The translations under genes and the position numbers were made by a program. Positions 2,025-22,826 of a DNA stretch of 32,000 nucleotides are shown here, piece by piece. Source of the stretch: an uncultured Mycoplasmatota bacterium (GTDB taxonomy: Bacteria; Bacillota_I; Bacilli_A; RF39; UBA660); NCBI GenBank assembly GCA_948465965.1, contig CAOJYR010000001.1, forward strand, positions 40,353-72,352, in the 5' to 3' direction. Each line of letters begins with the position of its first letter. The first letter of the stretch is position 1. A model generated the notes under the pieces. It saw nothing but the letters and a program-made list of their open reading frames with translations. It was not told where the DNA came from and made no database searches.

Positions 2025-2843
2025 TTATTTTCTTATTTCACGTTTAATCAATTTAGCATGTAATACCATTTTTTCATTATTATTATAACAAGTAGATAAA
2101 GTTATAATTTTATCATTTTCTAATACTTCAGTATTAAAATTATAAACACTTCTACCTCGAATAAGATGAATAAAACTATTAAATTGACTACTATTACCAA
2201 AATTAATATTCAAATAATCATCTGTAGTTTTGATATGATAAATACTAAACACTTCATATAAATAATTATTATTTGGAGTAGAAATTTTCACTAAGAAATT
2301 ACTATCATTAGAAAACCATTCCTGCCTCAAAGTACTTTTTAAACTCCCAAACATAGTTCCATCCACTCTACCATGAGCATAAATAATTGTATTTTTATCT
2401 AATTCATCAATATTATTTCGATAATCTAAAAACACCCAACCTGCATCATTATATTTTTTATTAAAAGAATGCTTTAAATAATAACTATTATCGCTATGTT
2501 GTACAAAAGGGTAATCTATATTAGTACCTAAAACCTTTATCCAACCAACAACTTCATTATTAACCTCCTGTAATTTAGAAAAGTCAACACGAAGCAATTT
2601 CTCATTATGATATTTACTATTTCCATATACTTCTGTTAAAGAACCATCCCCCGCTTCACTTCTTTTAGCCTTATCTTGAACATTCCTAATTTCATTGTTT
2701 GTATTCATATTATCAATCCACCAAGAAACTATCCTGTAAAAGGAATACATCATCAACAAACTAAAAAATATAAGTAAAACGAATAATATAATTGTCTTAA
2801 TTTTTCTTCTAGATCTTCTCCTAACCCTAAATATCCCCATCAC
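2025..2843 (-). CDS. class B-type sortase (transpeptidase)
   Basis: N-terminal TM anchor, catalytic His context IIYAHG, the TLSTC active-site motif, and a C-terminal Arg region. Confidence 0.75.
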   Translation of the reverse strand: MMGIFRVRRRSRRKIKTIILFVLLIFFSLLMMYSFYRIVSWWIDNMNTNNEIRNVQDKAKRSEAGDGSLTEVYGNSKYHNEKLLRVDFSKLQEVNNEVVGWIKVLGTNIDYPFVQHSDNSYYLKHSFNKKYNDAGWVFLDYRNNIDELDKNTIIYAHGRVDGTMFGSLKSTLRQEWFSNDSNFLVKISTPNNNYLYEVFSIYHIKTTDDYLNINFGNSSQFNSFIHLIRGRSVYNFNTEVLENDKIITLSTCYNNNEKMVLHAKLIKREIRK

Positions 2844-4213
2844 TACTCTCCTATTTTATCTAAAATATAATTAGAAACATCCTCTGTTTTTAATGTAATC
2901 TGTTCCATAGTATCCCTGTCTCTTACAGTGACTGTACCATTATTTATAGTCTCATCATCAACTGTAATACAATATGGAGTACCAATCGCATCACTTCTTC
3001 TGTAGCGTTTACCAATAGATCCAGTCTCATCATAGCTTGTCATAAATTTAGAGCTTAACTCACTATAAAGTTCTTTAGCCTTTTCTCCATGATATTTTTT
3101 ATTTAAAGGTAAAACAGCTACTTTATATGGAGCAAGATATGGAGTTAACTTCATAACTTCACGTCTATCTCCACCCTCAAGTTCTTCCACTGTATAAGCA
3201 TTATCTAAAACAGCTAAAACTAATCGATCACATCCAACAGTAGACTCAATGATATAAGGAATATATTTTTCATTAGTTATAGGATCCAAATATTCTTGGG
3301 ATACAGTAGAATACTCTTGATGACGACTCAAATCATAATTGGTTCTATTATGGGTTCCATTAATCTCTCCCCATCCAAAACTAAATTGATATTCAATATC
3401 ACATGCCTCTTTTGCATAATGAGCAAGTTTTTCATGATCATGATATCTTAACTTCTCTTCTGGAATTCCCAAATCTATAAAATATTTTTTAGCATATTCT
3501 CTAAAATAATTATAAAGATCTGAATCAAATCCTTCCTTACAAAATGTTTGATATTCCATTTGTTCAAATTCTATAGTTCTAAAAGTAAAGTTACCTGGAG
3601 TAATCTCATTTCGAAATGCTTTACCAATTTGACCAATACTAAACGGAAGCTTAGCTCTCATACTTCTTTGAACATTTAAGAAATTAACGTATTCTCCTTG
3701 TGCATTCTCAGGGCGCAAATAAACTTTATTTTTTCCATCTTCTGTAACACCGCGATGTGTTTCGAACATTAAATTAAATTGTCTAATATTCGTATAATCA
3801 CTCTTACCACACTTTGGACAAGGTACTTTATGTTCGCGAATATATTCCATCATCTCTTCTTGTGTCATACCATCCGCATGAGCATCAGGATCAAAATCAT
3901 CAATTAAGTTATCAGCACGATGCCTCATTTTACAACTCTTACAATCGATTAATGGATCCGAAAAACTTCCAACATGACCACTTGCTTCCCAAACACGAGG
4001 ATGCATTAAAATAGCCGCATCAACTTCATAAGCATTGGGACGTTGTTGTATAAATCTTTTCCTCCAAGAATCCTTAATATTATTCTTTAATCTCGCTCCA
4101 AGTGGTCCATAATCCCATGTATTCGCAAGGCCTCCATATATCTCACTCCCTTGAAATATAAAACCATATTGCTTACAATAATTTACTAATTTCTCCATTG
4201 TTAACTTTTCCAT
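2843..4213 (-). CDS. glyQS: glycine--tRNA ligase, single-chain type
   Basis: N-terminus KQYGFIFQGSEIYGGLANTWDYGPLG plus class II aaRS motifs throughout. AGGAGG lies 6 nt before the ATG. A T-box leader lies upstream. Confidence 0.95.
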   Translation of the reverse strand: MEKLTMEKLVNYCKQYGFIFQGSEIYGGLANTWDYGPLGARLKNNIKDSWRKRFIQQRPNAYEVDAAILMHPRVWEASGHVGSFSDPLIDCKSCKMRHRADNLIDDFDPDAHADGMTQEEMMEYIREHKVPCPKCGKSDYTNIRQFNLMFETHRGVTEDGKNKVYLRPENAQGEYVNFLNVQRSMRAKLPFSIGQIGKAFRNEITPGNFTFRTIEFEQMEYQTFCKEGFDSDLYNYFREYAKKYFIDLGIPEEKLRYHDHEKLAHYAKEACDIEYQFSFGWGEINGTHNRTNYDLSRHQEYSTVSQEYLDPITNEKYIPYIIESTVGCDRLVLAVLDNAYTVEELEGGDRREVMKLTPYLAPYKVAVLPLNKKYHGEKAKELYSELSSKFMTSYDETGSIGKRYRRSDAIGTPYCITVDDETINNGTVTVRDRDTMEQITLKTEDVSNYILDKIGE

Positions 4214-4445
4214 ATGTATCCTCCTTAAAATTAAAAAACTTCTAAAATTTATAAGGACGAGTTTTCCCGCGGTTCCACCTTACTTATTCTAGAAGAATCA
4301 TCTTTAACTTATACTGCTCGTAGCTTTCCACACCAGTCATCACACTTATCACTTAAAATAATACCTGTTTTACTTAAAAATGTCAATATTTTTAATTCTA
4401 CTTTCAGCAATCATGAAATAATTAATTTTCTCTTTTCACATCATT
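4214..4445 (-). promoter_or_regulatory. T-box leader (tRNA-sensing riboswitch) of glyQS
   Basis: The minus strand reads AAGGTGGAACCGCGGG (4281-4266), matching the conserved T-box antiterminator sequence. A GA/K-turn-like TGATGTGAAAAGAG lies near 4440. A possible specifier GGU followed by A lies at 4365-4362. The 5' boundary is approximate. Confidence 0.75.
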
Positions 4446-4487
4446 TTACATACTTAGTATTTAATAATCTCATTTATACAATATATA

Positions 4488-5408
4488 TTATGCAACATCA
4501 TCTATTTTATTTATCTGCTCTTTAGTCAAATGGGTATACTTAGATATAAATTCGATATCTATATCATCTTTTAACATCGCTTTAGCTATTTCTTTGGAAC
4601 CTTCTTGTTTACCTAAATCCTTCCATGCCCATTCCTTGTCATAACTTTCTCCAAAAAACTCATCTTCTACTACTTCCTCTGCTTCTTTTATATATTCTTC
4701 CATAATCTCCAAGTCTCCTCCTAATTCTTTTGAAGTTAGAATATCTGGCTCTATTAATCCTAGTGCATATCTTTCTTCTTCACTTAGTCTTTGTATGCCA
4801 CTAGTATACCATTTTCGTCTTAAATTTGGAATATAGATTTGAATAAATATTAACTTATCATTTAATACGACTCCTTCATCATTTTTAATCATATAAATAT
4901 CTATTATTTTATCATTCCCCTTAAAAGAAAAGTTATTCCAGTTGAATTGAATCACCTGTGTATAAGAATAGTCACTATTTCTTTTTACTTTACTTGCATA
5001 AAGTCTATGAGCATATTCCATATTTCGCTCTAGTACTTCTTTACTACTATTATTATTTATTTCTATATTTATTTTAATATCATTCACTATCGCAACATAA
5101 TCACATCTCTCTCCTTTATTTCTTTCTTTATCTTTATCCAATTCTCCTTTTGATAATTTAATATTATTTAGTAAGTCTTCATATTCAATATCTAGGTAAT
5201 ACGATAAAAACTTAGCCGAATACTTTATTCTGTTCTCATTATAAAACATAGTTTTAAACATACTATCTGACATTATAGATGGCTTTTGTCCTTCTTTCAA
5301 TTTTTCAATTTTTACTGAATCCTTATATGAAACAATATTATCATATAAAGACTTATAATTATAATCTCTTAATTTTAACACTTTATTCCTCCCAATAGTT
5401 TGACTCAT
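4488..5408 (-). CDS. PD-(D/E)XK nuclease family, putative transposase (Rpn/YhgA-like), island-flanking copy 1
   Basis: FKTMFYNENRIKYSAKFLSYYL...CDYVA...INIEINNN fits the Rpn-like D...ExQ/N core. Paralogous to 11639..12448. An alternative start is ATG 5273. Confidence 0.55.
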   Translation of the reverse strand: MSQTIGRNKVLKLRDYNYKSLYDNIVSYKDSVKIEKLKEGQKPSIMSDSMFKTMFYNENRIKYSAKFLSYYLDIEYEDLLNNIKLSKGELDKDKERNKGERCDYVAIVNDIKINIEINNNSSKEVLERNMEYAHRLYASKVKRNSDYSYTQVIQFNWNNFSFKGNDKIIDIYMIKNDEGVVLNDKLIFIQIYIPNLRRKWYTSGIQRLSEEERYALGLIEPDILTSKELGGDLEIMEEYIKEAEEVVEDEFFGESYDKEWAWKDLGKQEGSKEIAKAMLKDDIDIEFISKYTHLTKEQINKIDDVA

Positions 5409-5580
5409 TCGAATAAGTAGATAAACTATAACAGGAGAAACAATTTATTGCAAACTATACTTTTTACAAATACAAAAGAAAAAGATTAAGAAAAAATTAT
5501 ATTCTCCTAATCAATTATTTAAATTTATATAGATTACTTATTTTCTTTTACAAGTTTACAACAAACAATGAATAGTAATT

Positions 5581-7188
5581 TCATCTATGCATATTTACAT
5601 TAGAGTAATGGTTACTTGTATCAAGCAATAATCTTTTAAGTTGTTCATCTGTTATATTTATTACTTTTCCACCCTTAGGATTAATTTTTTTACCACCAAA
5701 AACAATCCATATTGCATCAATACTCCTATCTGGCATACTAGATTCTCCATCGGTAAAGATTATCTTGTTTTCAACTCTCCCAGTAAATACATTAACAGCA
5801 ACATCAAAGTTTGTTCCACCACCACCAAGAAATGGCATATTATCAATATCATTTTGATTTCTAATCTCGGTAAACCCATAAAATTCATCATCGAAACATC
5901 CTACTTTTACTTTAGATTCTTTTAAAATGTTTTTACATTCTCTTAAAAAATTCCTTAATAGCGTTTCAGAAACAGACCCACTTGTATCTAATAATATCTC
6001 AGTCTCAGGCTTAGGCATTTGTTCAAGATAAGGAGTTACTACGCCATCCTCTATAGAAGCATTTCTATAAGACCAATCAACATCATACCTCACAGCCTCT
6101 TTCAAGAGATATCTCCAATCGATTAATGGTTTACTTACACCTATATCAGTTACCTTTCTTTCATCACCATTTGACCCCTTCCCAGAACAATGTGACTGAC
6201 TAGCAAGTGATTTTCTTAATTCCTCCAATTGCTTTATTCGATCTATACTATTCTGTTTAAAAGATTTCTTTTCACCTAAATCTGTCAATTTTTTAATTTG
6301 TTGTTCCTTCTCTTTTCGCTTTTCATTCTTTTCCCTTTGAAAATTAGTTTTGGCATCCTCTGAAGTTTTCTCTATTGTTTGCTCATCTTGATTCGCATTA
6401 CCCTTTTTATCATTCCAATCCTTATGAAAAACTCTATCAAAAAAGCCTCTTTTATCTTTGGAGTTTATATTACCTTTAGTACCAACCATATCCGTATCAC
6501 TTGATTGTTGTACCGAATTGTCCTCTAAACCACTATCCTGTTTTTCATGTTGAAAGTCTTGATGTGGTGATTGTTCTAATTTATTATTATTAGCATCCTC
6601 ATCCTCTTGACGTCTTTTCTGGACACCCTTTTGCCACATATTATGTGTATCATACCCCACATCTATATTAGATGCTTGAGAATTTTCACTAGAACCTGAC
6701 CTGCTTTCATTTTGAGAATTCTGTTTCTGGGGACTAATACTATCCTGTGATTCATTACTGTTTTTATCCTGATGCCTTTTCTTATCCTCTAATAATTTCT
6801 CATAAAAAGACTCAGCATCATAATAAATAGCCTCTGGAATATTAATACTATCTTTTGGAATTACTATACCATCTTGTTTTAAATTAGCATTTACAACAGC
6901 ATCCGTTGCTATATTCCAAAGTTCAGGATCCTTCCCTTCACTTCTAAAAATATGATCAAAAGCTATATGACATATTTCATGTGCAAAAAGATACAATCTT
7001 TCTTCTTCTGTTGCATTCCTTAAATAATCTGGATGATAATAAACATTAGTTCCATCCGTCCCTCCAGTTGGTTGACCATTAGAATAACAATTGCTATCTT
7101 CTATATAATTTGTATTTGCTACTATACTTCCAAAAAAAGGATACTTAACTAATAACTTTCTTTTAATTGCTTCAATATCCACTTTCAA
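5581..7188 (-). CDS. putative Zn-metallopeptidase (HExxH) fused to a VWA domain (DUF2201-like), with a long low-complexity linker
   Basis: N-terminal FAHEICHIAFDH...ATDAVVN (HExxH). C-terminal ILLDTSGSVS (DxSGS MIDAS-type motif). A central linker of about 200 aa is rich in Q/S/N/E/K. Confidence 0.7.
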   Translation of the reverse strand: MKVDIEAIKRKLLVKYPFFGSIVANTNYIEDSNCYSNGQPTGGTDGTNVYYHPDYLRNATEEERLYLFAHEICHIAFDHIFRSEGKDPELWNIATDAVVNANLKQDGIVIPKDSINIPEAIYYDAESFYEKLLEDKKRHQDKNSNESQDSISPQKQNSQNESRSGSSENSQASNIDVGYDTHNMWQKGVQKRRQEDEDANNNKLEQSPHQDFQHEKQDSGLEDNSVQQSSDTDMVGTKGNINSKDKRGFFDRVFHKDWNDKKGNANQDEQTIEKTSEDAKTNFQREKNEKRKEKEQQIKKLTDLGEKKSFKQNSIDRIKQLEELRKSLASQSHCSGKGSNGDERKVTDIGVSKPLIDWRYLLKEAVRYDVDWSYRNASIEDGVVTPYLEQMPKPETEILLDTSGSVSETLLRNFLRECKNILKESKVKVGCFDDEFYGFTEIRNQNDIDNMPFLGGGGTNFDVAVNVFTGRVENKIIFTDGESSMPDRSIDAIWIVFGGKKINPKGGKVINITDEQLKRLLLDTSNHYSNVNMHR

Positions 7189-7198
7189 ATTTATATCC

Positions 7199-7597
7199 CT
7201 AAATATGCACCATCAATGAATATACTTCTTCACTAATTGGCTTTTCCTCTAGATTAGTAGCTGTTACAATAATAAAACAATTTCTTGGTAAGTCAAAGGT
7301 ACTAATTTTCTTATATTTTAATATTTCAATAAATTTTGTTTGTTTATCTAGTTTAAGTTGATTTATATTATCTATAATTAGTATTGCAGGTTTATCCTTA
7401 TTATTTGTTAATTCATAGTACCAATCAGGTGCTCTAAAAGTAAAACCTTCATAATGCCCATTTAATAATGAAATATCACAATTTGCATCTATTATGACAG
7501 CATTTTCAAAAATATTCGCAGGAATATCTTCTAACAAAATTGGAGACATACCTGATCGAATATATCCATCTAACATCGCTAATCTCTCTTTGTTCAT
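7199..7597 (-). CDS. small AAA-like protein lacking a Walker A motif
   Basis: PAILIIDNINQL resembles Walker B and CFIIVTATN resembles sensor 1, but no GxxxxGK(S/T) is present. The start overlaps the upstream stop (ATGA, 7597-7594). Confidence 0.45.
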   Translation of the reverse strand: MNKERLAMLDGYIRSGMSPILLEDIPANIFENAVIIDANCDISLLNGHYEGFTFRAPDWYYELTNNKDKPAILIIDNINQLKLDKQTKFIEILKYKKISTFDLPRNCFIIVTATNLEEKPISEEVYSLMVHI

Positions 7598-9207
7598 CGA
7601 CTCATTCCTCCTTCCGATAGCTCAACCATTTTTAATTCTGCTATTTTCTCTAGTCTAGACTCATCACCATGGGACCACAAGCTATCAAAAGTAGCTCCAA
7701 TTTCTGGTCCTAATTTCATAACAAAATTTCTTATAGTTAGTAAATTACTATCATCAACTGAGGAAAGCCCAACTGCTGTTGCAAACTTCTGTGCTGTATT
7801 CATTTCTAAATCCTCTTCTGTATAATTACCATTCAATACATCTTCAACCGTTATAACTCGCTGCCTAGTAAATGCAGTAAAATCTCTTGTTAACTCCTCT
7901 CCAATTAATGCCCTTAACATTTCAGGTTGCCCTGTAGCATACAAAACTTTAGATGCCATCTCCCATTTTCTGGGATCTGCATTTGGTTTTTCCCCATTAT
8001 AGGGAGTCCTTAGAACATCCTTACCACCAGAGGATTTATAAGCAACATATGCATATATTGAAGGATGAATTGTTAATTGTTCCTCTTCTTTTTTATAATT
8101 CAATCTTTCATATTGCTTTTTTGGAGTGGATGCCCATTGAAGCCAATTATCAACTGTTGTATTTATATATACATGAGCAAAACGATTAAATAGTGGTTCT
8201 GCCATTGTATTCGCAGCTAGAGAATCATTTAAATCATTTCCTGCAGCAACAATACGTACATTTTCTGGTAATTTCCAAATACCATTTACTTCTTTGTCCA
8301 AAACAATATTAAACGCCATACCCTGAATAGAAGGAAGCGCATTTGTAATTTCATCAAAAAATACAATATGCAATTTATCAGGTTCATCTTCACATTTCTT
8401 TTTAATTTTAGAAAGCCAAGTTGGAGCTACATCAATCATCTCTCCAGTTGCAGAATTAAAAACACTTTTTCCATTCAAACTCTCAGGAGTTGCATTCCTT
8501 AAATAAATAATCTCACAATCAGGATCAAATTGTTTTACTCTTGCACTTTTACCCTCACTACTTCTACCATGCAAAAAAACCGCAATATTACTTTCCAACG
8601 CACCCCTAATAATTTCTTCTTCTGATACATTTTCAAAATTAAAACCATATGGATTTTGTCTTCTCTCCATTCGTTTTCTTTCTTCATCTGTTAAAGGTTT
8701 GCTTTCTACAAATGATCTATTCTGCATTAAATCAGTTGAAAAATACGTATCCATATATTGTTTTATATCTGTTGTACTAAAATCCCCTTTATAATCTCTC
8801 TTATGTTTAAATTGAACCCCTGCAAATAATATCTTCTCACTAAGCATAATTCCTGATTGCTCATCAACTATCCACTTAACAGGTTCTACTTCTACCCAAA
8901 CATAATCTCCATCGACATACTCACACCCATTAGATAGTGTAAATTTACTACCACCAAAATCTGAATTCGCCAAAACCCTTACATATCTTTTATTATCATA
9001 TTCATATTCATCTATAGTCCTCGGTAAAAACTTTTCATCATATTCATCATATTTTCTTGAATCAACAGTATATGTATTACCTGTTCGTCTCATTCTACCG
9101 CTATGATACGCTTGCTCTAATGTAGACTGCATAAGTTGCGTAGCCACAGTTTGTGGATAGAATCCATACTCAACTTCTAAAATACCGTCATCCGCTCTTC
9201 TACTCAC
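7594..9207 (-). CDS. MoxR-like AAA+ ATPase with an N-terminal beta-rich (DUF6273-like) region; probable body of the DGR target
   Basis: Walker A GRSSEGKS, Walker B HIVFFDEITN, sensor-1 VRIVAAGN. The track start GTG 9207 has no spaced RBS, and the frame stays open upstream through the VR to 9303. Confidence 0.75.
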   Translation of the reverse strand: MSRRADDGILEVEYGFYPQTVATQLMQSTLEQAYHSGRMRRTGNTYTVDSRKYDEYDEKFLPRTIDEYEYDNKRYVRVLANSDFGGSKFTLSNGCEYVDGDYVWVEVEPVKWIVDEQSGIMLSEKILFAGVQFKHKRDYKGDFSTTDIKQYMDTYFSTDLMQNRSFVESKPLTDEERKRMERRQNPYGFNFENVSEEEIIRGALESNIAVFLHGRSSEGKSARVKQFDPDCEIIYLRNATPESLNGKSVFNSATGEMIDVAPTWLSKIKKKCEDEPDKLHIVFFDEITNALPSIQGMAFNIVLDKEVNGIWKLPENVRIVAAGNDLNDSLAANTMAEPLFNRFAHVYINTTVDNWLQWASTPKKQYERLNYKKEEEQLTIHPSIYAYVAYKSSGGKDVLRTPYNGEKPNADPRKWEMASKVLYATGQPEMLRALIGEELTRDFTAFTRQRVITVEDVLNGNYTEEDLEMNTAQKFATAVGLSSVDDSNLLTIRNFVMKLGPEIGATFDSLWSHGDESRLEKIAELKMVELSEGGMSR

Positions 9208-9510
9208 TCCGTTCGTAGAGATATCAGAGATTGAAGAGTACGTTAAAGCTGGGCGAGCACCACCATCGCGTTTAATAACATCGATGTCGTATCTATAACC
9301 ATTCTAGTAAACGACGCGCGCGTCATTATCCTGATCATCAGAACTTGTCCAATACCATCCTGTCCTATCCGCTAAAGTATTATTACTATGGTCAACATAA
9401 TAATCATCATCGACATAAGCGCCCAATAAAATTGAAAAATCTGTTACAGCCGCCTTTGTACCTCTTTTTTTTATAATATTAATTGGATTATTAAAATATT
9501 GATTTTTACA
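9208..9510 (-). pseudogene. DGR variable-region module (KAAVTDFSILLG...GWYWTSS...ARPAL) in frame with the AAA+ ORF, interrupted by TAG at 9306-9304, with no canonical start
   Basis: My translation: CKNQYFNNPINIIKKRGTKAAVTDFSILLGAYVDDDYYVDHSNNTLADRTGWYWTSSDDQDNDARVVY*NGYRYDIDVIKRDGGARPALTYSSISDISTNG, followed by VSRRADDG of the AAA ORF. The pseudogene label is provisional. Confidence 0.6.
9249..9322 (-). repeat. DGR variable repeat (VR)
   Basis: 74-nt match to 10763-10836 with 11 mismatches (9267, 9268, 9275, 9282, 9284, 9288, 9291, 9297, 9298, 9304, 9309). Each mismatch faces a T on the + strand of the TR, which is an A on the coding strand. Confidence 0.93.
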
Positions 9511-10539
9511 TTATTTGACATCTTTTGGTAAAATTTTCCTTTTAAAATTCAAACTTTCATCTGTATTTTTAACATGATTATAAAATGCATTTTTTCGCAT
9601 ATAAACATAAAAGGAATCTACAATATTCTTATTTTCTAATTTTTCTAGTGTTCGTAAATGTTTTTTCATTCTTGATTTAGAAGATGCTCTAAGTTTCCTA
9701 ATAATCTTTCCACTATCTGTTAGTATATGTCTGTAACCTAAAAAATCAATTCCATCACACACTTTCCCAATCTGTGTCTTTTGATTTAAAGATAATTTAA
9801 GTTCTAAAGAGCAAACTCTCTCTATTTCTTTTAAACATCTACGTAAATATGCTTTATCACGATGTATTAAAATCATATCATCCATATACCGAACATAACC
9901 TTTTATTCTAAACCTCTCTTTAATAAGTCGATCAACTTTATTTAAATATAGTAAAGCAAACCATTGACTAGTCTGGTTCCCCAAAGGTAGTCCAATTTTC
10001 ACATCATTAGGTTGCTGTCGTATCATCTTCTCTATAATCCACATTTCATCATCACTAAAGGATACTTCTTTCAATAATTTAATAAGTATATCATGATTAA
10101 TACTAGGAAAATACTTCTTTATATCACACTTTAAAAAGTAAAAATGATTATTATTCTCTTTTAAATACTCATGGCGCAAAAATTTTTCTAATCTATGAAT
10201 CGCAAAATCAGAACCCTTACCACACCTACATGCAGCATTATCAAATATAAGCTTTGCCTCAATCTTTTCTTTAACCGAATGATCACAAAGACACCTTATC
10301 ACTACTCTATCCTTATAAGGAAGAGCTTCAATTAATCTCTCTTTCGGTTCATAAATATAAAATTCGCGATATTTACCCAATTTATATTCTCTGGTAGTAA
10401 TTTCTTTTATTATCTTACTTATATTAACACTAAGATTAGCTTCAAATCGAATCACCTCACCCTTATGTTGTTTGCCTTTGCGACAATTTTTATGGGCTTC
10501 ATATAAATTTTCAAAAGTAAAAATATCTTCTAATTTCAT
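9511..10539 (-). CDS. DGR reverse transcriptase
   Basis: IGLPLGNQTSQ matches the DGR-type (I/L)GxxxSQ. YMDD catalytic box (VRYMDDMILI). An N-terminal FENLYEAHKNCRKGK region is present. Size of about 340 aa with no maturase or endonuclease domains. ATG 10539 lies 4 nt after GGAGGGAG. Confidence 0.9.
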   Translation of the reverse strand: MKLEDIFTFENLYEAHKNCRKGKQHKGEVIRFEANLSVNISKIIKEITTREYKLGKYREFYIYEPKERLIEALPYKDRVVIRCLCDHSVKEKIEAKLIFDNAACRCGKGSDFAIHRLEKFLRHEYLKENNNHFYFLKCDIKKYFPSINHDILIKLLKEVSFSDDEMWIIEKMIRQQPNDVKIGLPLGNQTSQWFALLYLNKVDRLIKERFRIKGYVRYMDDMILIHRDKAYLRRCLKEIERVCSLELKLSLNQKTQIGKVCDGIDFLGYRHILTDSGKIIRKLRASSKSRMKKHLRTLEKLENKNIVDSFYVYMRKNAFYNHVKNTDESLNFKRKILPKDVK

Positions 10540-10551
10540 AACTCCCTCCAA

Positions 10552-10762
10552 AAAAAGAACACCCCTTATAACCTCTAAAGATAGAATAATCTAACGTTAG
10601 AAAGTGTAAGTGTTCAAATTATTCCACCGCACTAATCTCTCCTAGCGGTTAGAAAAGAGAAAAATCCCTTCACTCTATGGAACTGATATATCTTACTTAA
10701 AATATATTTCTCTGTCCTGTTTTCTAGATTCACGATTTTTGTAAATCTCTTCAAAAGTGAAT
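10552..10762 (-). ncRNA. DGR spacer RNA region between TR and RT (part of the TR transcript)
   Basis: Non-coding and GC-enriched relative to its surroundings. Contains the 8-bp hairpin AGATTCAC/GTGAATCT (10726-10733 with 10757-10764) abutting the TR 3' end, and a CCGC...GCGG hairpin near 10628-10650. Confidence 0.6.
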
Positions 10763-10836
10763 CTGGGCGAGCACCACCATTTCGTTTATTAACATTGTTG
10801 TTGTTTCTATTTCCATTTTAGTTAACGACGCGCGCG
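10763..10836 (-). repeat. DGR template repeat (TR)
   Basis: In the target frame the coding strand reads cgc gtc gtt AAC TAA AAT gga AAT aga AAC AAC AAC AAT gtt AAT aaa cga AAT ggt ggt gct cgc cca. This is the AAY-codon-rich pattern typical of DGR TRs. It is non-coding, between avd and RT. Confidence 0.93.
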
Positions 10837-10924
10837 AGGCAACACGAGGGGGCTCAAGCGACGTAACCACCCTAAAATTAAATTTTTCTCTTAATTAAAA
10901 GCCTTTCGACTTAAAATCCTAAAA

Positions 10925-11503
10925 TCATTTTCTAAATCTTTTATCGTCACTTTTTTTCCAAGCAACAATCAAATTTATAGCATCAGCTGTCTGTAAAGAT
11001 ATCTGCCTATATTGCTTTCTTAAAATACAGCCAGATGATTCCGCAACCATTGCAATATAGCCAAGCATTTTAAGTTTAACAATTGCTTCTTTTTGAAAAT
11101 CTTCACGACGCTTCTTATTTAGATCACTATCCAGTCTTATAAAATTGGCCTGAAGCAAATCTTCTAAAACATCTAAACAATAATTTTGCATTCGATTAAC
11201 AAAAACTCCTCTAAATCTTTTAGGAGATTTCTCTGTAATAGCTATAACATAAGCACATAATTTCTTTACTTTAGTTATAACAATTAAATCATTAGAATTA
11301 AAAGGTATCTTAGAAACACTCTCTAATTCTCTGTCAAAGTCTTCCACCTGCTCTAAAATCTTCTTCTCATTGATTTTTTTATCATTCGCCATCGCAATAG
11401 ATATTTTTGATTCAACTTCATCATCTACACTATTCACGACTTTTACGACTTGTTCTACTTCTTTTGGTATTTTCAAACTACCATCTCTACTAACTTGTAA
11501 CAC
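10925..11503 (-). CDS. avd: Avd-like accessory variability determinant (four-helix-bundle family) with an N-terminal extension
   Basis: The C-terminal ~120 aa (KLCAYVIAITEKSPKRFRGVFVNRMQNYCLDVLEDLLQAN...LKMLGYIAMVAESSGCILRKQYRQISLQ...AWKKSD) resembles Avd and 23S-IVS helical bundle proteins, and the gene sits in the canonical position 5' of the TR. GTG 11503 lies 8 nt after GGAGGG. The track start 11563 falls in a -35 box. Confidence 0.7.
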   Translation of the reverse strand: MLQVSRDGSLKIPKEVEQVVKVVNSVDDEVESKISIAMANDKKINEKKILEQVEDFDRELESVSKIPFNSNDLIVITKVKKLCAYVIAITEKSPKRFRGVFVNRMQNYCLDVLEDLLQANFIRLDSDLNKKRREDFQKEAIVKLKMLGYIAMVAESSGCILRKQYRQISLQTADAINLIVAWKKSDDKRFRK

Positions 11504-11534
11504 TACTACTACCCTCCAAGTTAATTTTAATAAT

Positions 11535-11563
11535 AGTATAATGTAACACAAAAATTTACGCAA
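11535..11563 (-). promoter_or_regulatory. sigma-A-type promoter of the DGR operon (TTGCGT-17 nt-TATACT)
   Basis: -35 box at 11563-11558, -10 box at 11540-11535, spacer of 17 nt, about 30 nt upstream of the avd start. Confidence 0.45.
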
Positions 11564-11638
11564 TAAATATTTAGTTTACTTTTTACAAAAACTATAACAT
11601 AATTCTATTTTAAAACTAAAAAATCTTATAGATAGAAC

Positions 11639-12448
11639 CTATTTTAACTTTTCTACTTCTTCAATGGATAATTTTGTTATTTTAGAAATTGTACCAATAT
11701 CTATTTTTTCCTTTATCATCTCTTTTGCCATATTTATTGTATTGTCTTTCGCACCATCATTATATGATTCTTCTTTTAAAGCTAATTCTTTATCATAAAT
11801 CTCACCAAAATATTCATCATCTAATACCTCATTTACTTCTTTTATATAGTCTTTCATAATTTTTAAGTCTCCTCCCAATTCTTTAGAAGAAATTATATTT
11901 GGCTCTACTAAAGCCAATATAAATCTTTCTGCTTCGGTTAGGTTTTGTATACCTTGATTGTACCATTTTCTCCTTAAATTGGGAATATAGATTTGAATAA
12001 ATATTATATCATTTGAGAGTCTTAATTTTCCTTTATTATTTATTGTATAGATATCTATTACTTTATTATTTCCAACGAATGAAAAGTTATTTAAATTAAA
12101 TTGTATTATTTGCCTATATTTATAAGTGGATTTGTCTTTTCCTCTTTTTACTTTACTTCCATATAATTTGAATGCATAGTCCATGTTCCTCTTTAAATAT
12201 TTCATATTACTATTACTATTACTATTATTATTTACCTCAATATTTATTCTAGCATCATCTATACCCGCTACATAATCACTTCTATATTCCTTATTATTAT
12301 GTTTTTCTTTGTCCAACTCTCCCTTGCTTAACCTTATATTTTCTAACAATTCTTCATAACTTATATCTAGAAAGTATGAAATGAATTTAACACTATACTT
12401 AAGTCTATTTTCATTATAGAAAATAGTATGAAATAGCGTATCAGACAT
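11639..12448 (-). CDS. PD-(D/E)XK nuclease family, putative transposase (Rpn/YhgA-like), island-flanking copy 2, N-terminally shortened
   Basis: Collinear with 4488..5408 (FHTIFYNENRLKYSVKFISYFL...SDYVA...INIEVNNN) and shares identical nucleotide runs such as ggaatatagatttgaataaatatta. Homologous coding-like sequence continues upstream to the recO stop without a start codon. Confidence 0.55.
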   Translation of the reverse strand: MSDTLFHTIFYNENRLKYSVKFISYFLDISYEELLENIRLSKGELDKEKHNNKEYRSDYVAGIDDARINIEVNNNSNSNSNMKYLKRNMDYAFKLYGSKVKRGKDKSTYKYRQIIQFNLNNFSFVGNNKVIDIYTINNKGKLRLSNDIIFIQIYIPNLRRKWYNQGIQNLTEAERFILALVEPNIISSKELGGDLKIMKDYIKEVNEVLDDEYFGEIYDKELALKEESYNDGAKDNTINMAKEMIKEKIDIGTISKITKLSIEEVEKLK

Positions 12449-12532
12449 TATGGATGGTTTTTCTCCCTCCCTTAAACTTTCAATTTTTAAAGTTTTACTT
12501 TTCCTTACATTTTTTATTTTAATATAAAAAAC

Positions 12533-13273
12533 TTAACTAGTTAATTTGTTAAGCTCCCTAATAAAGTTTTTACTTTTTAAATAAATTCCTGTATATCGAT
12601 CATAATAATCATCTAAAAATTGATTAATCTCTTTTACCACACTCTCACTTACATCTAATTTAGTTATATTTTTAATATCAACATAATAAAACAATCTAAT
12701 CATCTTTATTGCTTTATCACTTACCAATGGCTCATTTTGATAACAATTCCGACAGATGTATCCTCCCGCAGTAGAGTCAATCGTTACAATCGCCTTATCA
12801 CTACCACATATACTGCAAAAATCAATAGATGGTCTAACCCCTAAAAAATCTAAAAGTTTTAATTCTAAAATATTAGTAAGAACAATTGGAGAAAAGCCTT
12901 CATCCATTTTTAGTAGTGTATCTTTAAAAAGTTCAAATATCTCCTCATCTTCACTTTCTTTAGTCACCTGATTAACAAGTTCTAAAATAAAAGAGGCATA
13001 ACTTACTCTTTCTAAATCCATTACGATATTAGAAAAAGAATTAATAATATCTACCCCAATTAATGTAGATAGTCCTTTTTCTTTAAAATAAATATGAAAA
13101 GTACCATAAACAAGTTTTCTACTCACCCCACGTAACTTACTTTTCATACTACGACATCCCTTAGACATAATTCCAATAAGACCAAATTCTTTTGTTAAAA
13201 CATTTAAAATCTTACTAGATTCACTATAATTTGTCTCACTTAAAACAATTCCTTCTACTGCTTCTATTTTCAT
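12533..13273 (-). CDS. recO: DNA repair protein RecO
   Basis: OB-fold N-terminus and a Cys4 zinc module (CSICGS...CRNC). Conserved era-yqzL-recO order. Confidence 0.85.
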   Translation of the reverse strand: MKIEAVEGIVLSETNYSESSKILNVLTKEFGLIGIMSKGCRSMKSKLRGVSRKLVYGTFHIYFKEKGLSTLIGVDIINSFSNIVMDLERVSYASFILELVNQVTKESEDEEIFELFKDTLLKMDEGFSPIVLTNILELKLLDFLGVRPSIDFCSICGSDKAIVTIDSTAGGYICRNCYQNEPLVSDKAIKMIRLFYYVDIKNITKLDVSESVVKEINQFLDDYYDRYTGIYLKSKNFIRELNKLTS

Positions 13274-13432: not shown

Positions 13433-14326
13433 TTAATTTTCATCCTCATCCTTAAGTCCAAGTTCTAAAAAGTATTTCTCTTCATCACGCCAATTCTTTA
13501 AAGTTTTAACGTACGTCTCTAAAAATACTTTCTTACCTAAGAATTTTTCCATATCATATCTCGCACGTGACCCTATCTCTTTAAGCATAGACCCACCTTT
13601 TCCAATAATAATTTTTTTAATATTATCACGATCGACTACAATTAATACCTGAATATGCACTAGATTTTCTTCTTCTTCATAACTCTCCACATAACAAGTG
13701 ACACTATGAGGAATCTCTTGTTTCGTTAATTCTAAAACTTTCTCTCTTACTAACTCTGCCATAATAAACCTTGTTGAAACATTAGTTAAATCCTCCTCGG
13801 AATAAATTTTATCCATCTCTGGTAAATATTTTTTCAAACAATGAACTAATTCATCAATATTGTTATTCTTCATTGCAGATATAGGAATAATTTCAGCAAA
13901 GTCATATAATTCTTTTAACTCATTAATTTTTTCAAGTAAAATGGTCTTATCTTTAATTTGATCAATTTTATTTAAAAGTAAGAATACTGGAACGCCCCTA
14001 TCCTTTATTTTATTTAAAATGAAAGCATCCCCCTTACCAAAACCTTTAGCTATATCAATTAAAAATAAAACAACGTCAACACCTTCCGTATTATTATAAG
14101 CCTTCTTATTCATTAAATTGCCTAATTTATGACTGGGTTTATGAATACCGGGTGTATCAATAAAAATAATTTGTGCATCACTAGTATTATAAATACCCTG
14201 TATAACATTACGAGTCGTACCACTAACATTAGAAGTTATAGCAAGCTTCATTCCAAGAAGACTATTTAAAAGGGTACTTTTCCCAACATTAGGACGTCCT
14301 ACTAAACTTACAAAACCACATCTCAT
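13433..14326 (-). CDS. era: GTPase Era
   Basis: G1 GRPNVGKST, G3 DTPG, G4 NKID, and a C-terminal KH domain (IIGKGGSMLK). Confidence 0.95.
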   Translation of the reverse strand: MRCGFVSLVGRPNVGKSTLLNSLLGMKLAITSNVSGTTRNVIQGIYNTSDAQIIFIDTPGIHKPSHKLGNLMNKKAYNNTEGVDVVLFLIDIAKGFGKGDAFILNKIKDRGVPVFLLLNKIDQIKDKTILLEKINELKELYDFAEIIPISAMKNNNIDELVHCLKKYLPEMDKIYSEEDLTNVSTRFIMAELVREKVLELTKQEIPHSVTCYVESYEEEENLVHIQVLIVVDRDNIKKIIIGKGGSMLKEIGSRARYDMEKFLGKKVFLETYVKTLKNWRDEEKYFLELGLKDEDEN

Positions 14327-14712
14327 ATCTCTAAATCCTCACTTCCAAATGGATAAGGGCAAAGTTCCCCAACTTTAAATTCTTTTACTTCTCCCACAGT
14401 ACTATAACATTTGATGGTATCTTCTTTATCAAAGAATTCAGCTATAACCTGACGGCAAGCAAAACAAGGCATCCCTATTCTTCCGTTTCCGACCATTAAA
14501 TTTAGCTCCTGAAAGTCTCCCTTTTTATACCCTGCACTAACAGCACCAAGAATAGCGCTTCTTTCAGCACAAATACAAGCCCCATAACTAGCATTTTCTA
14601 CATTAACCCCACAAAATTCACATCCATCTTTCGTAATAACAATAGCTGCTACCCTAAAATGTGAATATGGGCTATAACTATTTTCTAATAATTTTAATAA
14701 TTTATCTTTCAT
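14323..14712 (-). CDS. cdd: cytidine deaminase
   Basis: CAERSA and PCFACRQ zinc-ligand motifs, size of about 130 aa, start and stop overlaps with neighbouring genes. Confidence 0.9.
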   Translation of the reverse strand: MKDKLLKLLENSYSPYSHFRVAAIVITKDGCEFCGVNVENASYGACICAERSAILGAVSAGYKKGDFQELNLMVGNGRIGMPCFACRQVIAEFFDKEDTIKCYSTVGEVKEFKVGELCPYPFGSEDLEI

Positions 14713-22749: not shown

Positions 22750-22826
22750 TGGTGTCCGCGAGGCGACTCGAACGCCTGACCGATCGCTTAGAAGGCGATT
22801 GCTCTATCCAGCTGAGCTACGCAGAC
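22750..22826 (-). tRNA. tRNA-Arg (anticodon TCT), CCA encoded
   Basis: The minus strand reads GTCTGCGTAGCTCAGCTGGATAGAGCAATCGCCTTCTAAGCGATCGGTCAGGCGTTCGAGTCGCCTCGCGGACACCA. It has the D-loop AGCTCAGCTGGATAGAGC, the anticodon loop CTTCTAA, and the T-loop GTTCGAGTC. Confidence 0.9.

Follow-up and report, generated by a model that had tools for sequence, protein, structure and literature searches.

Rpn (YhgA-like) recombination-promoting nucleases are toxic proteins with antiphage activity whose antitoxin is encoded within the gene itself (Kingston 2017, PMC5350276; Zhong 2023, PMC10400941). The rpn genes are reported to be enriched in defence islands, to act in phage defence, and to behave as single-gene units whose gain and loss involve neither target-site duplications nor inverted repeats, with no evidence of transposition in published work (PMC10400941); when overproduced, the E. 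coli Rpn proteins raise RecA-independent recombination (PMC5350276). In diversity-generating retroelements (DGRs) of the BPP-1 type, the variable repeat (VR) sits in the C-terminal end of a C-type lectin (CLec) protein encoded upstream of Avd. DGRs have also been tied to the MoxR-vWA "ternary" conflict systems of cyanobacteria and gammaproteobacteria (Kaur et al. 2020, PMC7159879).

Relatives of all these systems are found together in the stretch of 32,000 nucleotides analysed here (the window), which comes from a clade of uncultured low-GC gut Bacilli. About 8.1 kb separates the recO stop (12533) from the glyQS promoter and T-box leader (Table 1), and read from the recO side the interval holds a 5′-truncated Rpn-like gene (RpnB′), Avd, the template repeat (TR), the reverse transcriptase (RT), the DGR target, a 132-aa gene, a DUF2201/VWA gene and a complete Rpn-like unit (RpnA). 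We consider it probable that this interval is a variable hotspot, occupied here by a patchwork of three separately acquired, partly decayed modules of the conflict or defence type. The first would be the truncated Rpn-family nuclease gene; the second a DGR operon comprising Avd, TR, RT, a target that joins a variable domain to a MoxR-like AAA+ ATPase, the 132-aa protein and the DUF2201 metallopeptidase/VWA protein; and the third the complete single-gene Rpn unit, whose own leader carries a terminator and a promoter. These modules may have arrived separately, through horizontal transfer and recombination between related Bacilli that are alike in composition. We likewise read the Rpn genes as probable defence-type toxic nucleases and not transposon ends, and the cluster as probably not a self-mobile unit.

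Table 1. Features of the recO–glyQS interval and its edges (positions in the window)
Feature	Position	Strand	Basis or remark
glyQS, single-chain glycyl-tRNA synthetase	2843..4213	-	downstream-edge backbone gene; Pfam tRNA-synt_2b + HGTP_anticodon
glyQS promoter and T-box leader (backbone)	4214..4395	-	Rfam, promoter scan, conservation
glyQS-side edge of variable segment	4397..4487	-	between 4397-4425 and RpnA stop at 4488
RpnA, full-length Rpn-family PD-(D/E)XK gene	4488..5381 (ORF 4488-5408)	-	297 aa from GTG 5381
Leader of RpnA unit	5382..5558	-	terminator-like hairpin and T run, then promoter-like site
DUF2201_N (HExxH metallopeptidase-like) + DUF2201 (VWA-like) protein	5581..7188	-	Pfam E 2.6e-27, 4.7e-11
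Conserved 132-aa partner gene	7199..7597	-	conserved position between AAA and VWA genes
AAA+ ATPase body of DGR target	7594..9207	-	Walker A GRSSEGKS, Walker B FFDE
N-terminal variable domain remnant of DGR target (DUF6273-like)	9208..9510	-	same frame as AAA ORF
DGR reverse transcriptase (RT)	9511..10551	-	Pfam RVT_1 E 1e-17
DGR template repeat (TR)	10760..10836	-	77 nt, 29 adenines; direct repeat
Avd, DGR accessory protein	10925..11563	-	weak profile matches and relatives
RpnB′, 5′-truncated Rpn-family gene	11639..12503 (ORF 11639-12448)	-	first usable start ATG 12448, 269 aa
recO-side breakpoint of variable segment	12500..12514	-	ends of backbone and Rpn homology
recO	12533..13273	-	upstream-edge backbone gene; Pfam RecO_N + RecO_C

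The recO–glyQS interval and its modules in relatives

None of the seven island genes was found at the recO–glyQS junction in 40 GTDB species representatives and two closer lineages (recO 87% and 80% identical), which supports an interpretation of the segment as lineage-specific accessory DNA and agrees with an earlier sequence-only reading that had described an inserted island of about 8 kb. That reading had also called the junction deeply conserved, and this does not hold in the clade, where the spacing varies between 168 bp and more than 10 kb, or the junction is broken, and the content changes. Specifically, recO and glyQS lie 168–3663 bp apart with differing genes between them in the 23 species with both genes, and in 8 further species glyQS is absent from the 4–10 kb of sequence examined downstream of recO. 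The genes at these junctions include one for a small membrane protein, a LOG/SLOG gene, one for a TPR protein and orphan genes. recO itself is 87% identical to that of its nearest relative (L054) and forms a singleton in a set of about 15 billion proteins, with no same-species genome in the collections. The comparison with related genomes that had been proposed does place the cassette at other sites and not at the junction, which in the relatives contains other, changing genes.

The modules occur independently elsewhere. The DGR cassette lies after valS in L052 and L053 and between greA and pyk in L064, and an RT-less version lies between yetF and addB in L049–51 and L043; none of these cassettes has an adjacent Rpn gene. 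Lone Rpn units are found between an Fe-ADH and an ABC gene in L041, between thrS and addB in L061 and beside a DUF6273 gene in L062, and there is no Rpn match in approximately 640 kb of recO loci. It is also worth considering that the unit in L062 has this DUF6273 neighbour and that, in L049 and L051, an Rpn relative lies about 7 kb away from the RT-less cassette. With a low copy number, chance would be unlikely to place two Rpn genes within 7 kb, and thus the Rpn genes may be linked to this cluster in some way.

The identity of glyQS among relatives is bimodal, with classes of 61–68% and 82–87% that do not track recO or era (Spearman −0.28, compared with +0.82 for era against recO), suggesting recombination breakpoints in the interval across the clade. 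The same pattern could reflect replacement of the entire interval, possibly along with the glyQS allele and T-box leader, by one homologous recombination from a related donor with the same gene order. Island composition equal to that of the backbone is expected of a same-clade donor, and the nearest recO relatives (80–87%) carry different genes after recO. We nonetheless regard such a replacement as unlikely: a donor with this gene order was found in none of the collections searched, the cut in RpnB′ (12500–12514) is an illegitimate and not a homologous junction, and the modules occur separately elsewhere.

By GC3, which is 0.165–0.211 in the island and 0.165–0.240 in the backbone, the segment shows no mark of a mobile unit; such backbone-like composition is also compatible with long residence. 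That the cassette stood at the junction in a common ancestor and was later deleted in the other lineages is very improbable, even though backbone-like GC3 and decay, seen in the truncated RpnB′ and in the disabled target, speak for it. It needs loss in all 42 sampled lineages with unrelated genes substituting, neither remnants of the relatives' gap genes in the window nor remnants of the island genes in the relatives were found, and orthologous cassettes lie at other loci.

Two diverged Rpn-like genes and the edges of the segment

RpnA matches Pfam PDDEXK_2 (E 4.1e-12, 46.7 bits; cut-off 27.4) and TIGR01784 (E 9.8e-12), and its homologs carry HTH_Rpn_C and variable 4-aa repeats. GTG 5381, preceded by a ribosome-binding site (GGGAGG), is most likely its start. 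In the leader, a hairpin at approximately 5512–5484 (11 bp, −10 kcal/mol) is followed by a T run, a promoter scan places a promoter-like site at 5453–5425, and about 150 nt are conserved upstream of Rpn genes in unrelated contexts in L061 and L062. RpnB′ matches the TIGR01784 Rpn family at E 2.3e-9 and 37.5 bits, below the 52.1 cut-off. Members of the family are 295–335 aa long, the alignment covering 96% of RpnA, and their conserved N-terminus (MLNLRxYNYKxLYD...) is absent from RpnB′. The loss noticed from the sequence is therefore real, but it comprises about 21 codons plus a leader of roughly 150 nt and not some 45 codons.

Likewise, codons homologous to the Rpn family do persist upstream of the RpnB′ ATG, as untranslated remnants at 12449–12503, yet they end approximately 30–45 nt short of the recO stop instead of reaching it. 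Nucleotide homology to L054 and L055 runs out at 12514–12515, and homology to full-length Rpn genes starts at about 12503 (L061) and 12489 (L041); the breakpoint, first placed at about 12530, does cut the recO-proximal Rpn gene but is located slightly further inside. Judged from these alignments, illegitimate recombination or deletion joined the recO 3′ flank to the interior of RpnB′. On the other side, homology to relatives begins at 4360–4425. The glyQS leader is 82–89% identical in nucleotides to those of about 30 relatives over most of its length (~130–140 nt), contains a TTGACA-17-TATTAT promoter at 4386–4358 (11 of 12 positions matched in the promoter scan), and matches the Rfam T-box model at E 2.9e-7 and 38.7 bits, under the gathering score of 93.

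On alignment the two Rpn genes are true paralogs, as had been claimed (BLASTP E 1e-113, 59% identity over 283 aa), and they are anciently diverged. The "long identical nucleotide runs" also attributed to them amount to 25 nt at the longest, followed by 16 and 15 nt, in DNA that is 72–77% identical. P0002 shares 78% identity with RpnA, and P0042, the nearest homolog of RpnB′, shares 71% with that copy, compared with only 58–59% between the two island genes. Both do lie on the minus strand, but so does every ORF of at least 130 aa between 1273 and 31971, and their common orientation is thus uninformative. A cargo bracketed by directly oriented paralogs of one family invites the idea of a composite element, in which the Rpn genes are functional ends that brought the DGR/AAA/VWA cargo into the junction and can move or delete it by recombination between the copies or by Rpn nuclease activity; the 25-nt run, the recombination raised by Rpn overproduction in E. 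coli (PMC5350276) and the proximity of Rpn relatives to DUF6273 or AAA genes in two further lineages are in keeping with it. We consider it improbable. Each copy is closer to genes of other genomes, which argues against their acting as ends of one element; one has lost its leader and 5′ end; in relatives, two further sites carry this cargo with no Rpn genes flanking it; Rpn units are found alone; and published work gives no evidence that rpn genes transpose (PMC10400941). Moreover, the suggested search of the edges yielded no target-site duplication and no terminal or inverted repeat (best match 8 nt, equalled in 437 of 500 shuffles), and Pfam found no integrase or recombinase domain in the island. 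The proposal that the paralogs mobilise the cassette is therefore unsupported, and its deletion by recombination between them has thin support from the single 25-nt run.

The retroelement and its target

Avd matches Pfam bAvd (E 5.5e-5) and NCBIfam DivGenRetAVD (E 1.7e-6), both under cut-off, and is 63% identical to a 191–197-aa gene upstream of RT in L052, L053 and L064; its real start is probably 15–20 codons inside the called ORF. The RT carries the motifs LGNQTSQ and YMDD and shares 65% identity with its counterpart in L052 and L053. The VR lies at 9246–9322 in the N-terminal domain of the target, and all 12 of its mismatches to the TR, which contains an in-frame TAA, fall at TR adenines; to judge from this signature, the DGR was active in the past. 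By sequence the target is now disabled at its 5′ end: the VR holds an in-frame TAG (9304–9306), the N-terminal region has no canonical start codon, and by comparison with L053 about 92 nt comprising a ribosome-binding site, ATG and 9 codons are missing.

Homologs of the target are continuous proteins of 630–650 aa, and 5 of 25 family members match DUF6273. The AAA+ body gives weak Pfam matches to Sigma54_activat and AAA_5, and its AlphaFold model (pLDDT 74.5) gives weak Foldseek matches to MCM and dynein AAA+ modules (E about 1e-5, TM 0.15–0.22). The 132-aa gene, for which a Pfam search gave no match, has counterparts of 53–64% identity in L043, L046, L047–L053 and L064, again lying between the AAA and VWA genes, and the DUF2201 gene comes after the AAA gene in all related cassettes whose contig reaches that far. 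No PADLOC model matches the Rpn, AAA or VWA proteins, and "defence" is a label suggested by the literature and family resemblance only.

Comparison with described systems

Like the Rpn nucleases, the island proteins have an N-terminal PD-(D/E)XK domain (PF12784; TIGR01784 aligned end to end), HTH_Rpn_C in their homologs, a C-terminal tail whose variable 4-aa repeats generate a length series (295, 299 ... 335 aa), and a distribution as scattered single-gene units, without inverted repeats or target-site duplications and often amid defence-type genes. In contrast to those nucleases, the island copies score under the TIGR01784 cut-off, are not members of PF04754 as the E. coli proteins are, carry about 36 additional, conserved residues at the N-terminus, and by eye have E-x-N and not E-x-Q at the third catalytic position, the nuclease role being predicted; one copy is truncated.

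The retroelement resembles the BPP-1 type in its Avd-TR-RT order, its RT motifs, a 77-nt TR/VR pair mismatched exclusively at TR adenines, and a GC-rich end common to TR and VR. It differs in the placement of the VR, which is carried by a small N-terminal domain of a 630–650-aa AAA+ protein downstream of RT; the target is now disabled, and the in-frame TAA of the TR departs from the stop-free AAY design (PMC7826257). With the MoxR-vWA systems the locus shares an AAA+ ATPase of the MoxR/dynein/MCM superclade (matching MoxR models weakly), a VWA protein, a small third gene and a ligand-binding domain diversified by a DGR; here, however, it is the ATPase and not the vWA protein that bears the fused variable domain, the vWA partner is of the DUF2201 metallopeptidase type, and the host belongs to a small-genome lineage of gut Bacilli instead of being a multicellular bacterium. 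Finally, as at chromosomal hotspots and in defence islands, an unchanging pair of core genes encloses accessory content that varies by species, with conflict-type cargo and no integrase; unlike in those islands, the relatives' cargo consists mostly of orphan genes without a recognised defence domain, and recognisable conflict systems are confined to this lineage.

A variable interval between recO and glyQS

The DNA of the window is low in GC (~28%), and its host is an uncultured gut Bacilli lineage whose relatives appear in public records as Tenericutes, Bacilli or Mycoplasmatota MAGs. The minus strand holds all ORFs of at least 130 aa, from 1273 to 31971. A 6S RNA gene was also recognized at 224–408 on this strand (Rfam, 47.9 bits, barely over the gathering score).

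Features around the recO–glyQS interval, in transcriptional order
Feature	Position in window	Strand	Remark
era	13433–14326	-	transcriptionally ahead of the YqzL-like ORF
YqzL-like ORF	between era and recO	-	30 aa
recO	12533–13273	-
RpnB'	11639–12448	-	5'-truncated Rpn-like gene
Avd	10925–11563	-	candidate DGR accessory protein
TR	10760–10836	-	template repeat
RT	9511–10551	-	reverse transcriptase
DGR target, variable domain	9208–9510	-
VR	9246–9322		variable repeat
DGR target, AAA+ body	7594–9207	-
132-aa gene	7199–7597	-
DUF2201_N/DUF2201 gene	5581–7188	-	VWA-like
RpnA unit	4488–5558	-	full-length Rpn-like gene
Rpn leader	5382–5558		ahead of RpnA
glyQS promoter and predicted T-box leader	4214–4395	-
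glyQS	2843–4213	-

The recO loci of 40 GTDB species representatives (recO 53–78% identical) and of two closer metagenomic lineages (87% and 80%) were compared. None of the seven island genes gave a tblastn match at the junction in any of these 40 representatives or two closer lineages, and absence from the same site in close relatives, a classical feature of genomic islands, is seen across loci L001–L040 and L054–L060. The collections hold no genome of the same species: recO is a singleton by homology search, its nearest relative being 87% identical, and exact-protein look-ups of recO, glyQS and era returned no match from other strains.

Nucleotide homology with the 87% relative stops at 12514, 19 nt beyond the recO stop, and Rpn homology begins at 12489–12503, which together place the breakpoint on the recO side at about 12500–12514. 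On the glyQS side, the homology of relatives extends to ~4425 at most; the variable segment therefore covers approximately 4426–12513 (8.1 kb), close to the island limits drawn in the sequence-only reading. Comparison of the two edges with each other gave a best direct match of 8 nt, reached in 437 of 500 shuffles, and a best inverted match of 7 nt, reached in 479 of 500, neither exceeding chance. A candidate border repeat of 41 nt (4201–4241 versus 12494–12534, 71% identity) was rejected as AT-rich chance, because the similarity runs over the start of glyQS and the comparison of the edges had found no shared repeat beyond chance.

The same reading had treated this site as a deeply conserved recO–glyQS junction, but across the clade the junction is far from fixed. 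Where glyQS does follow recO (23 species), the spacing ranges from 168 to 3663 bp; it falls below 220 bp in only four species, and one more has 465 bp devoid of any ORF of at least 60 aa. Elsewhere among the 23, the gap holds a small membrane protein, a LOG/SLOG gene under a T-box, a TPR protein or orphan genes lacking Pfam matches. Other housekeeping genes (rluB, ferredoxin, polC, nusA/infB) come after recO in eight species, and in these glyQS was not found in the 4–10 kb of available sequence downstream of recO. The 87% relative carries an unrelated 283-aa orphan gene directly after recO, and the 80% relative carries two orphan genes. A search of the window for remnants of the relatives' gap genes (LOG, the small membrane protein and others) returned nothing apart from spurious matches over the T-box leader.

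The glyQS gene itself points to repeated exchange in this interval. Its identity to the window copy is bimodal across L001–L060 (61–68% or 82–87%) and uncorrelated with that of recO or era (Spearman -0.28, versus +0.82 for era against recO); recombination breakpoints therefore recur in the recO–glyQS interval across the clade, and the pattern of identities suggests that the glyQS allele was replaced by transfer within the clade. The distant glyQS type is the one carried by the closest recO relatives.

The predicted glycine T-box leader is strongly conserved before glyQS, or before LOG–glyQS, in relatives, with ~130–140 nt, most of the window's leader, 82–89% identical to about 30 of them. It aligns with Rfam RF00230 (T-box) at E 2.9e-7 and 38.7 bits, under the gathering score of 93; the alignment is good in the 3' half, which includes AAGGUGGAACCGCGGG. 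A promoter scan places TTGACA-17-TATTAT ahead of the leader. In many relatives (for example, loci L012 at 13712–14394 and L006 at 1982–2677) the leader is followed by a LOG/SLOG (lysine-decarboxylase-like) gene abutting glyQS, implying a LOG–glyQS operon under T-box control; the window has no LOG gene.

Apart from its absence in relatives, the segment has none of the usual marks of a classical island. No integrase or recombinase Pfam domain was found within it, the sole tRNA lies at 22753–22826, no repeats border the segment, and its composition is not atypical, the GC3 of island genes (0.165–0.211) being indistinguishable from that of the backbone (0.165–0.240).

Rpn-like genes at the two ends

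The genes at the two ends are indeed paralogs, as had been proposed from the sequence (BLASTP E 1e-113, 59% identity, 78% positives). The accompanying claim of long identical nucleotide runs was overstated: DNA identity is 72–77%, and the exact runs reach at most 25 nt (about 12006 in one copy and 4852 in the other), the next being 16 and 15 nt. Each copy proved closer to a gene elsewhere (RpnA to P0002, 78%; RpnB to P0042, 71%) than to the other (58–59%). The sample that yielded the nearest recO relative is also the source of P0042, a lone Rpn gene flanked by thrS and addB; no contig was found when the placement of P0002 was sought. Many RpnA homologs lie on contigs of 1–2 kb, as repeated genes do.

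Membership in the Rpn family is supported by several features. RpnA matches Pfam PF12784 (PDDEXK_2) at 46.7 bits (cut-off 27.4), and the N-terminal PD-(D/E)XK domain of the family is present; RpnB alone has no Pfam match at E <= 0.01. The profile TIGR01784 ([quoted passage not shown]) aligns end to end with both copies (profile positions 2–273 of 273) but scores 45.2 bits for RpnA and 37.5 for RpnB, short of its cut-off of 52.1. Judged by eye, both copies show the motifs SD..., (C/S)DY and INIE(I/V)N; the residues D, D and E-x-N in them are candidate counterparts of the catalytic D11, D63, E82 and Q84 of E. coli RpnA. A search across 5.8 billion protein clusters returned a family of proteins of 295–335 aa, with 96% of RpnA covered. 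The lengths of the homologs (P0001–P0120) step by 4 aa (295, 299, 303, 311 ... 335), since the C-terminal tail has a variable count of repeats such as SQGK, AEGK and EEGR; most homologs also have a precomputed match to PF27070 (HTH_Rpn_C), the C-terminal HTH of the family. In RpnA and RpnB the number of repeats is at its minimum. Searches of the PDB by sequence and profile returned nothing for the Rpn proteins, and none of the plasmid records searched encodes a relative of RpnA.

The two copies differ at their 5' ends. The family N-terminus is conserved (MLNLRxYNYKxLYD..V.I.KLK.GEKPSI(L/M)SD), and in RpnB homology to the family sets in only near codon 22, the first usable start being an internal ATG at 12448. 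For RpnA the most likely start is GTG 5381, with the ribosome-binding site GGGAGG ahead of it. A leader of ~150 nt precedes Rpn genes in three unrelated contexts, namely after the VWA gene (window), after thrS (L061) and after a DUF6273 gene (L062), and is predicted to contain a terminator-like hairpin with a T run followed by a promoter; RpnB has no such leader. In the window and in L061 (372–532) it starts ~9–23 nt from the stop of the upstream gene; in L062 it lies at ~9800–10000. A 410-aa DUF6273 protein is followed immediately by the Rpn homolog P0015 (L062 8550–10888; L063 5754–8092); its domain is of the kind varied by the DGR in the window, and no RT was seen within 10 kb.

Together, these observations are at odds with a composite transposon, which would have near-identical, transposase-encoding flanks and, at its outer edges, terminal inverted repeats and a target-site duplication; the flanks here are neither near-identical nor bordered in this way, and Rpn proteins are not known transposases (PMC10400941). 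Published rpn genes are reported to come and go one at a time, with neither inverted repeats nor target-site duplications and no evidence that they transpose; defence islands are enriched in them, and they can protect against phage (PMC10400941). Rpn units were found alone at three other sites. The proposal that the cassette is mobilised or deleted via its Rpn paralogs is not supported by these observations, and a single element defined or moved by Rpn flanks seems improbable. The case also cautions against taking same-strand paralogs for transposon ends where the whole chromosome arm is co-oriented.

E. coli Rpn proteins, when overproduced, are non-specific endonucleases and increase RecA-independent recombination (PMC5350276). 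One can imagine Rpn-family nuclease genes serving as landing pads for recombination: by cutting and joining DNA independently of RecA, they would have made both the hotspot and the illegitimate recO/RpnB junction and caught the DGR–AAA/VWA cassette between two Rpn units. We consider this improbable; if true, it would mean that Rpn genes help assemble and reshuffle conflict-gene clusters in reduced gut Bacilli.

A DGR-linked AAA+/VWA cassette

The cassette between the Rpn genes has its own distribution. The order Avd–TR–RT–target–132-aa gene–VWA gene recurs, ~72% identical in DNA, after valS in L052/L053, and in L064 a further copy is flanked by greA and pyk; no Rpn genes stand beside the copies in L052/L053 or L064. 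A cassette without an RT is found between yetF and addB in L049–51. From these placements, the modules of the island appear not to form one unit. At locus L043 (8943–12776), two tandem targets of the variable-domain AAA+ type (629 and 640 aa) are followed by one 130-aa gene and one VWA gene, and no RT was detected in the ~9 kb upstream of them.

A TR and VR that differ only at TR adenines, with an RT adjoining, are the mark of a DGR. Here all 12 mismatches across the 77-nt TR/VR pair fall at TR adenines, of which there are 29, and the adjoining RT (RVT_1, E 1e-17) carries the motifs LGNQTSQ and YMDD. The Avd candidate scores below cut-off against bAvd (24.1 bits, cut-off 40) and DivGenRetAVD (28.3 bits, cut-off 80); both its position and its 63% identity to the gene that precedes the RT in L052 and L064 agree with an Avd.

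The target belongs to a family of more than 3,000 matching proteins, typically 630–650 aa, which join a variable N-terminal domain resembling DUF6273 to a divergent AAA+ ATPase. Relative to L053, ~92 nt are missing, comprising the ribosome-binding site, the ATG and nine codons, and the reading frame is broken within VR by an in-frame TAG (9304–9306) where TR has TAA. Judged from its sequence, the window's DGR target thus seems disabled in two ways, by loss of the start region and by the VR stop. An alternative genetic code for the TAG was rejected, because TAA and TAG terminate neighbouring genes.

In-frame stops occur in the TR of all three DGR-linked cassettes, at a different codon in each (window, TAA; L053, TAG; L064, TAA; TR/VR at 2727–2810/4325–4400 in L053 and 8349–8432/9900–10008 in L064), contradicting a stop-free AAY design. 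The targets are interrupted in all three, L053 by a TAG and a -2 frameshift and L064 by a TAA five codons ahead of VR; copies without an RT are intact (629–649 aa). Such interruptions could represent decay, a switch between on and off states, or noise from assembling a hypervariable region.

The ATPase body has weak matches only, to AAA_5 and Sigma54. In Foldseek its AlphaFold model (pLDDT 74.5) resembled AAA+ modules from MCM and dynein weakly and at low TM, which would fit the MoxR/AAA_5 superclade and the VWA-like DUF2201 partner present in the cassette. PDB sequence and profile searches returned no solved relative of the AAA protein, a viral-contig scan no relative and a metagenome scan six loci only. 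Among phage records, the relatives of the AAA+ module (residues 167–473) are annotated "ATPase" and share only 29% identity with it; they occur in 560 records, including jumbo Pseudomonas phages of the PA5oct type. PADLOC recognized only the RT and had no model matching the Rpn, AAA or VWA proteins.

An accessory cluster and its relation to known systems

What lies between recO and glyQS is a real accessory cluster, specific to this lineage, in an interval that varies and is prone to recombination; it was put together from modules that are mobile separately, and it has partly decayed. Viewed as an island it is unremarkable, another of the variable hotspots between core genes. Its usefulness is as a worked example from an uncultured gut Bacilli clade, in which one hotspot is shared by single-gene units of the Rpn type and an AAA+/VWA system diversified by a DGR, and the trio of variable-domain AAA+, 132-aa and DUF2201 proteins is a large, barely described family.

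The variable 4-aa-repeat tail of the RpnA homologs matches the hallmark reported for Rpn and RpnS proteins, a feature described both in Rpn proteins and in the antitoxins encoded within them (PMC10400941). The AAA+/VWA cassette resembles the DGR-linked MoxR–vWA conflict systems described by Kaur et al. (PMC7159879), although in those systems the variable domain resides on the vWA protein, whereas in the window it is fused to the ATPase.
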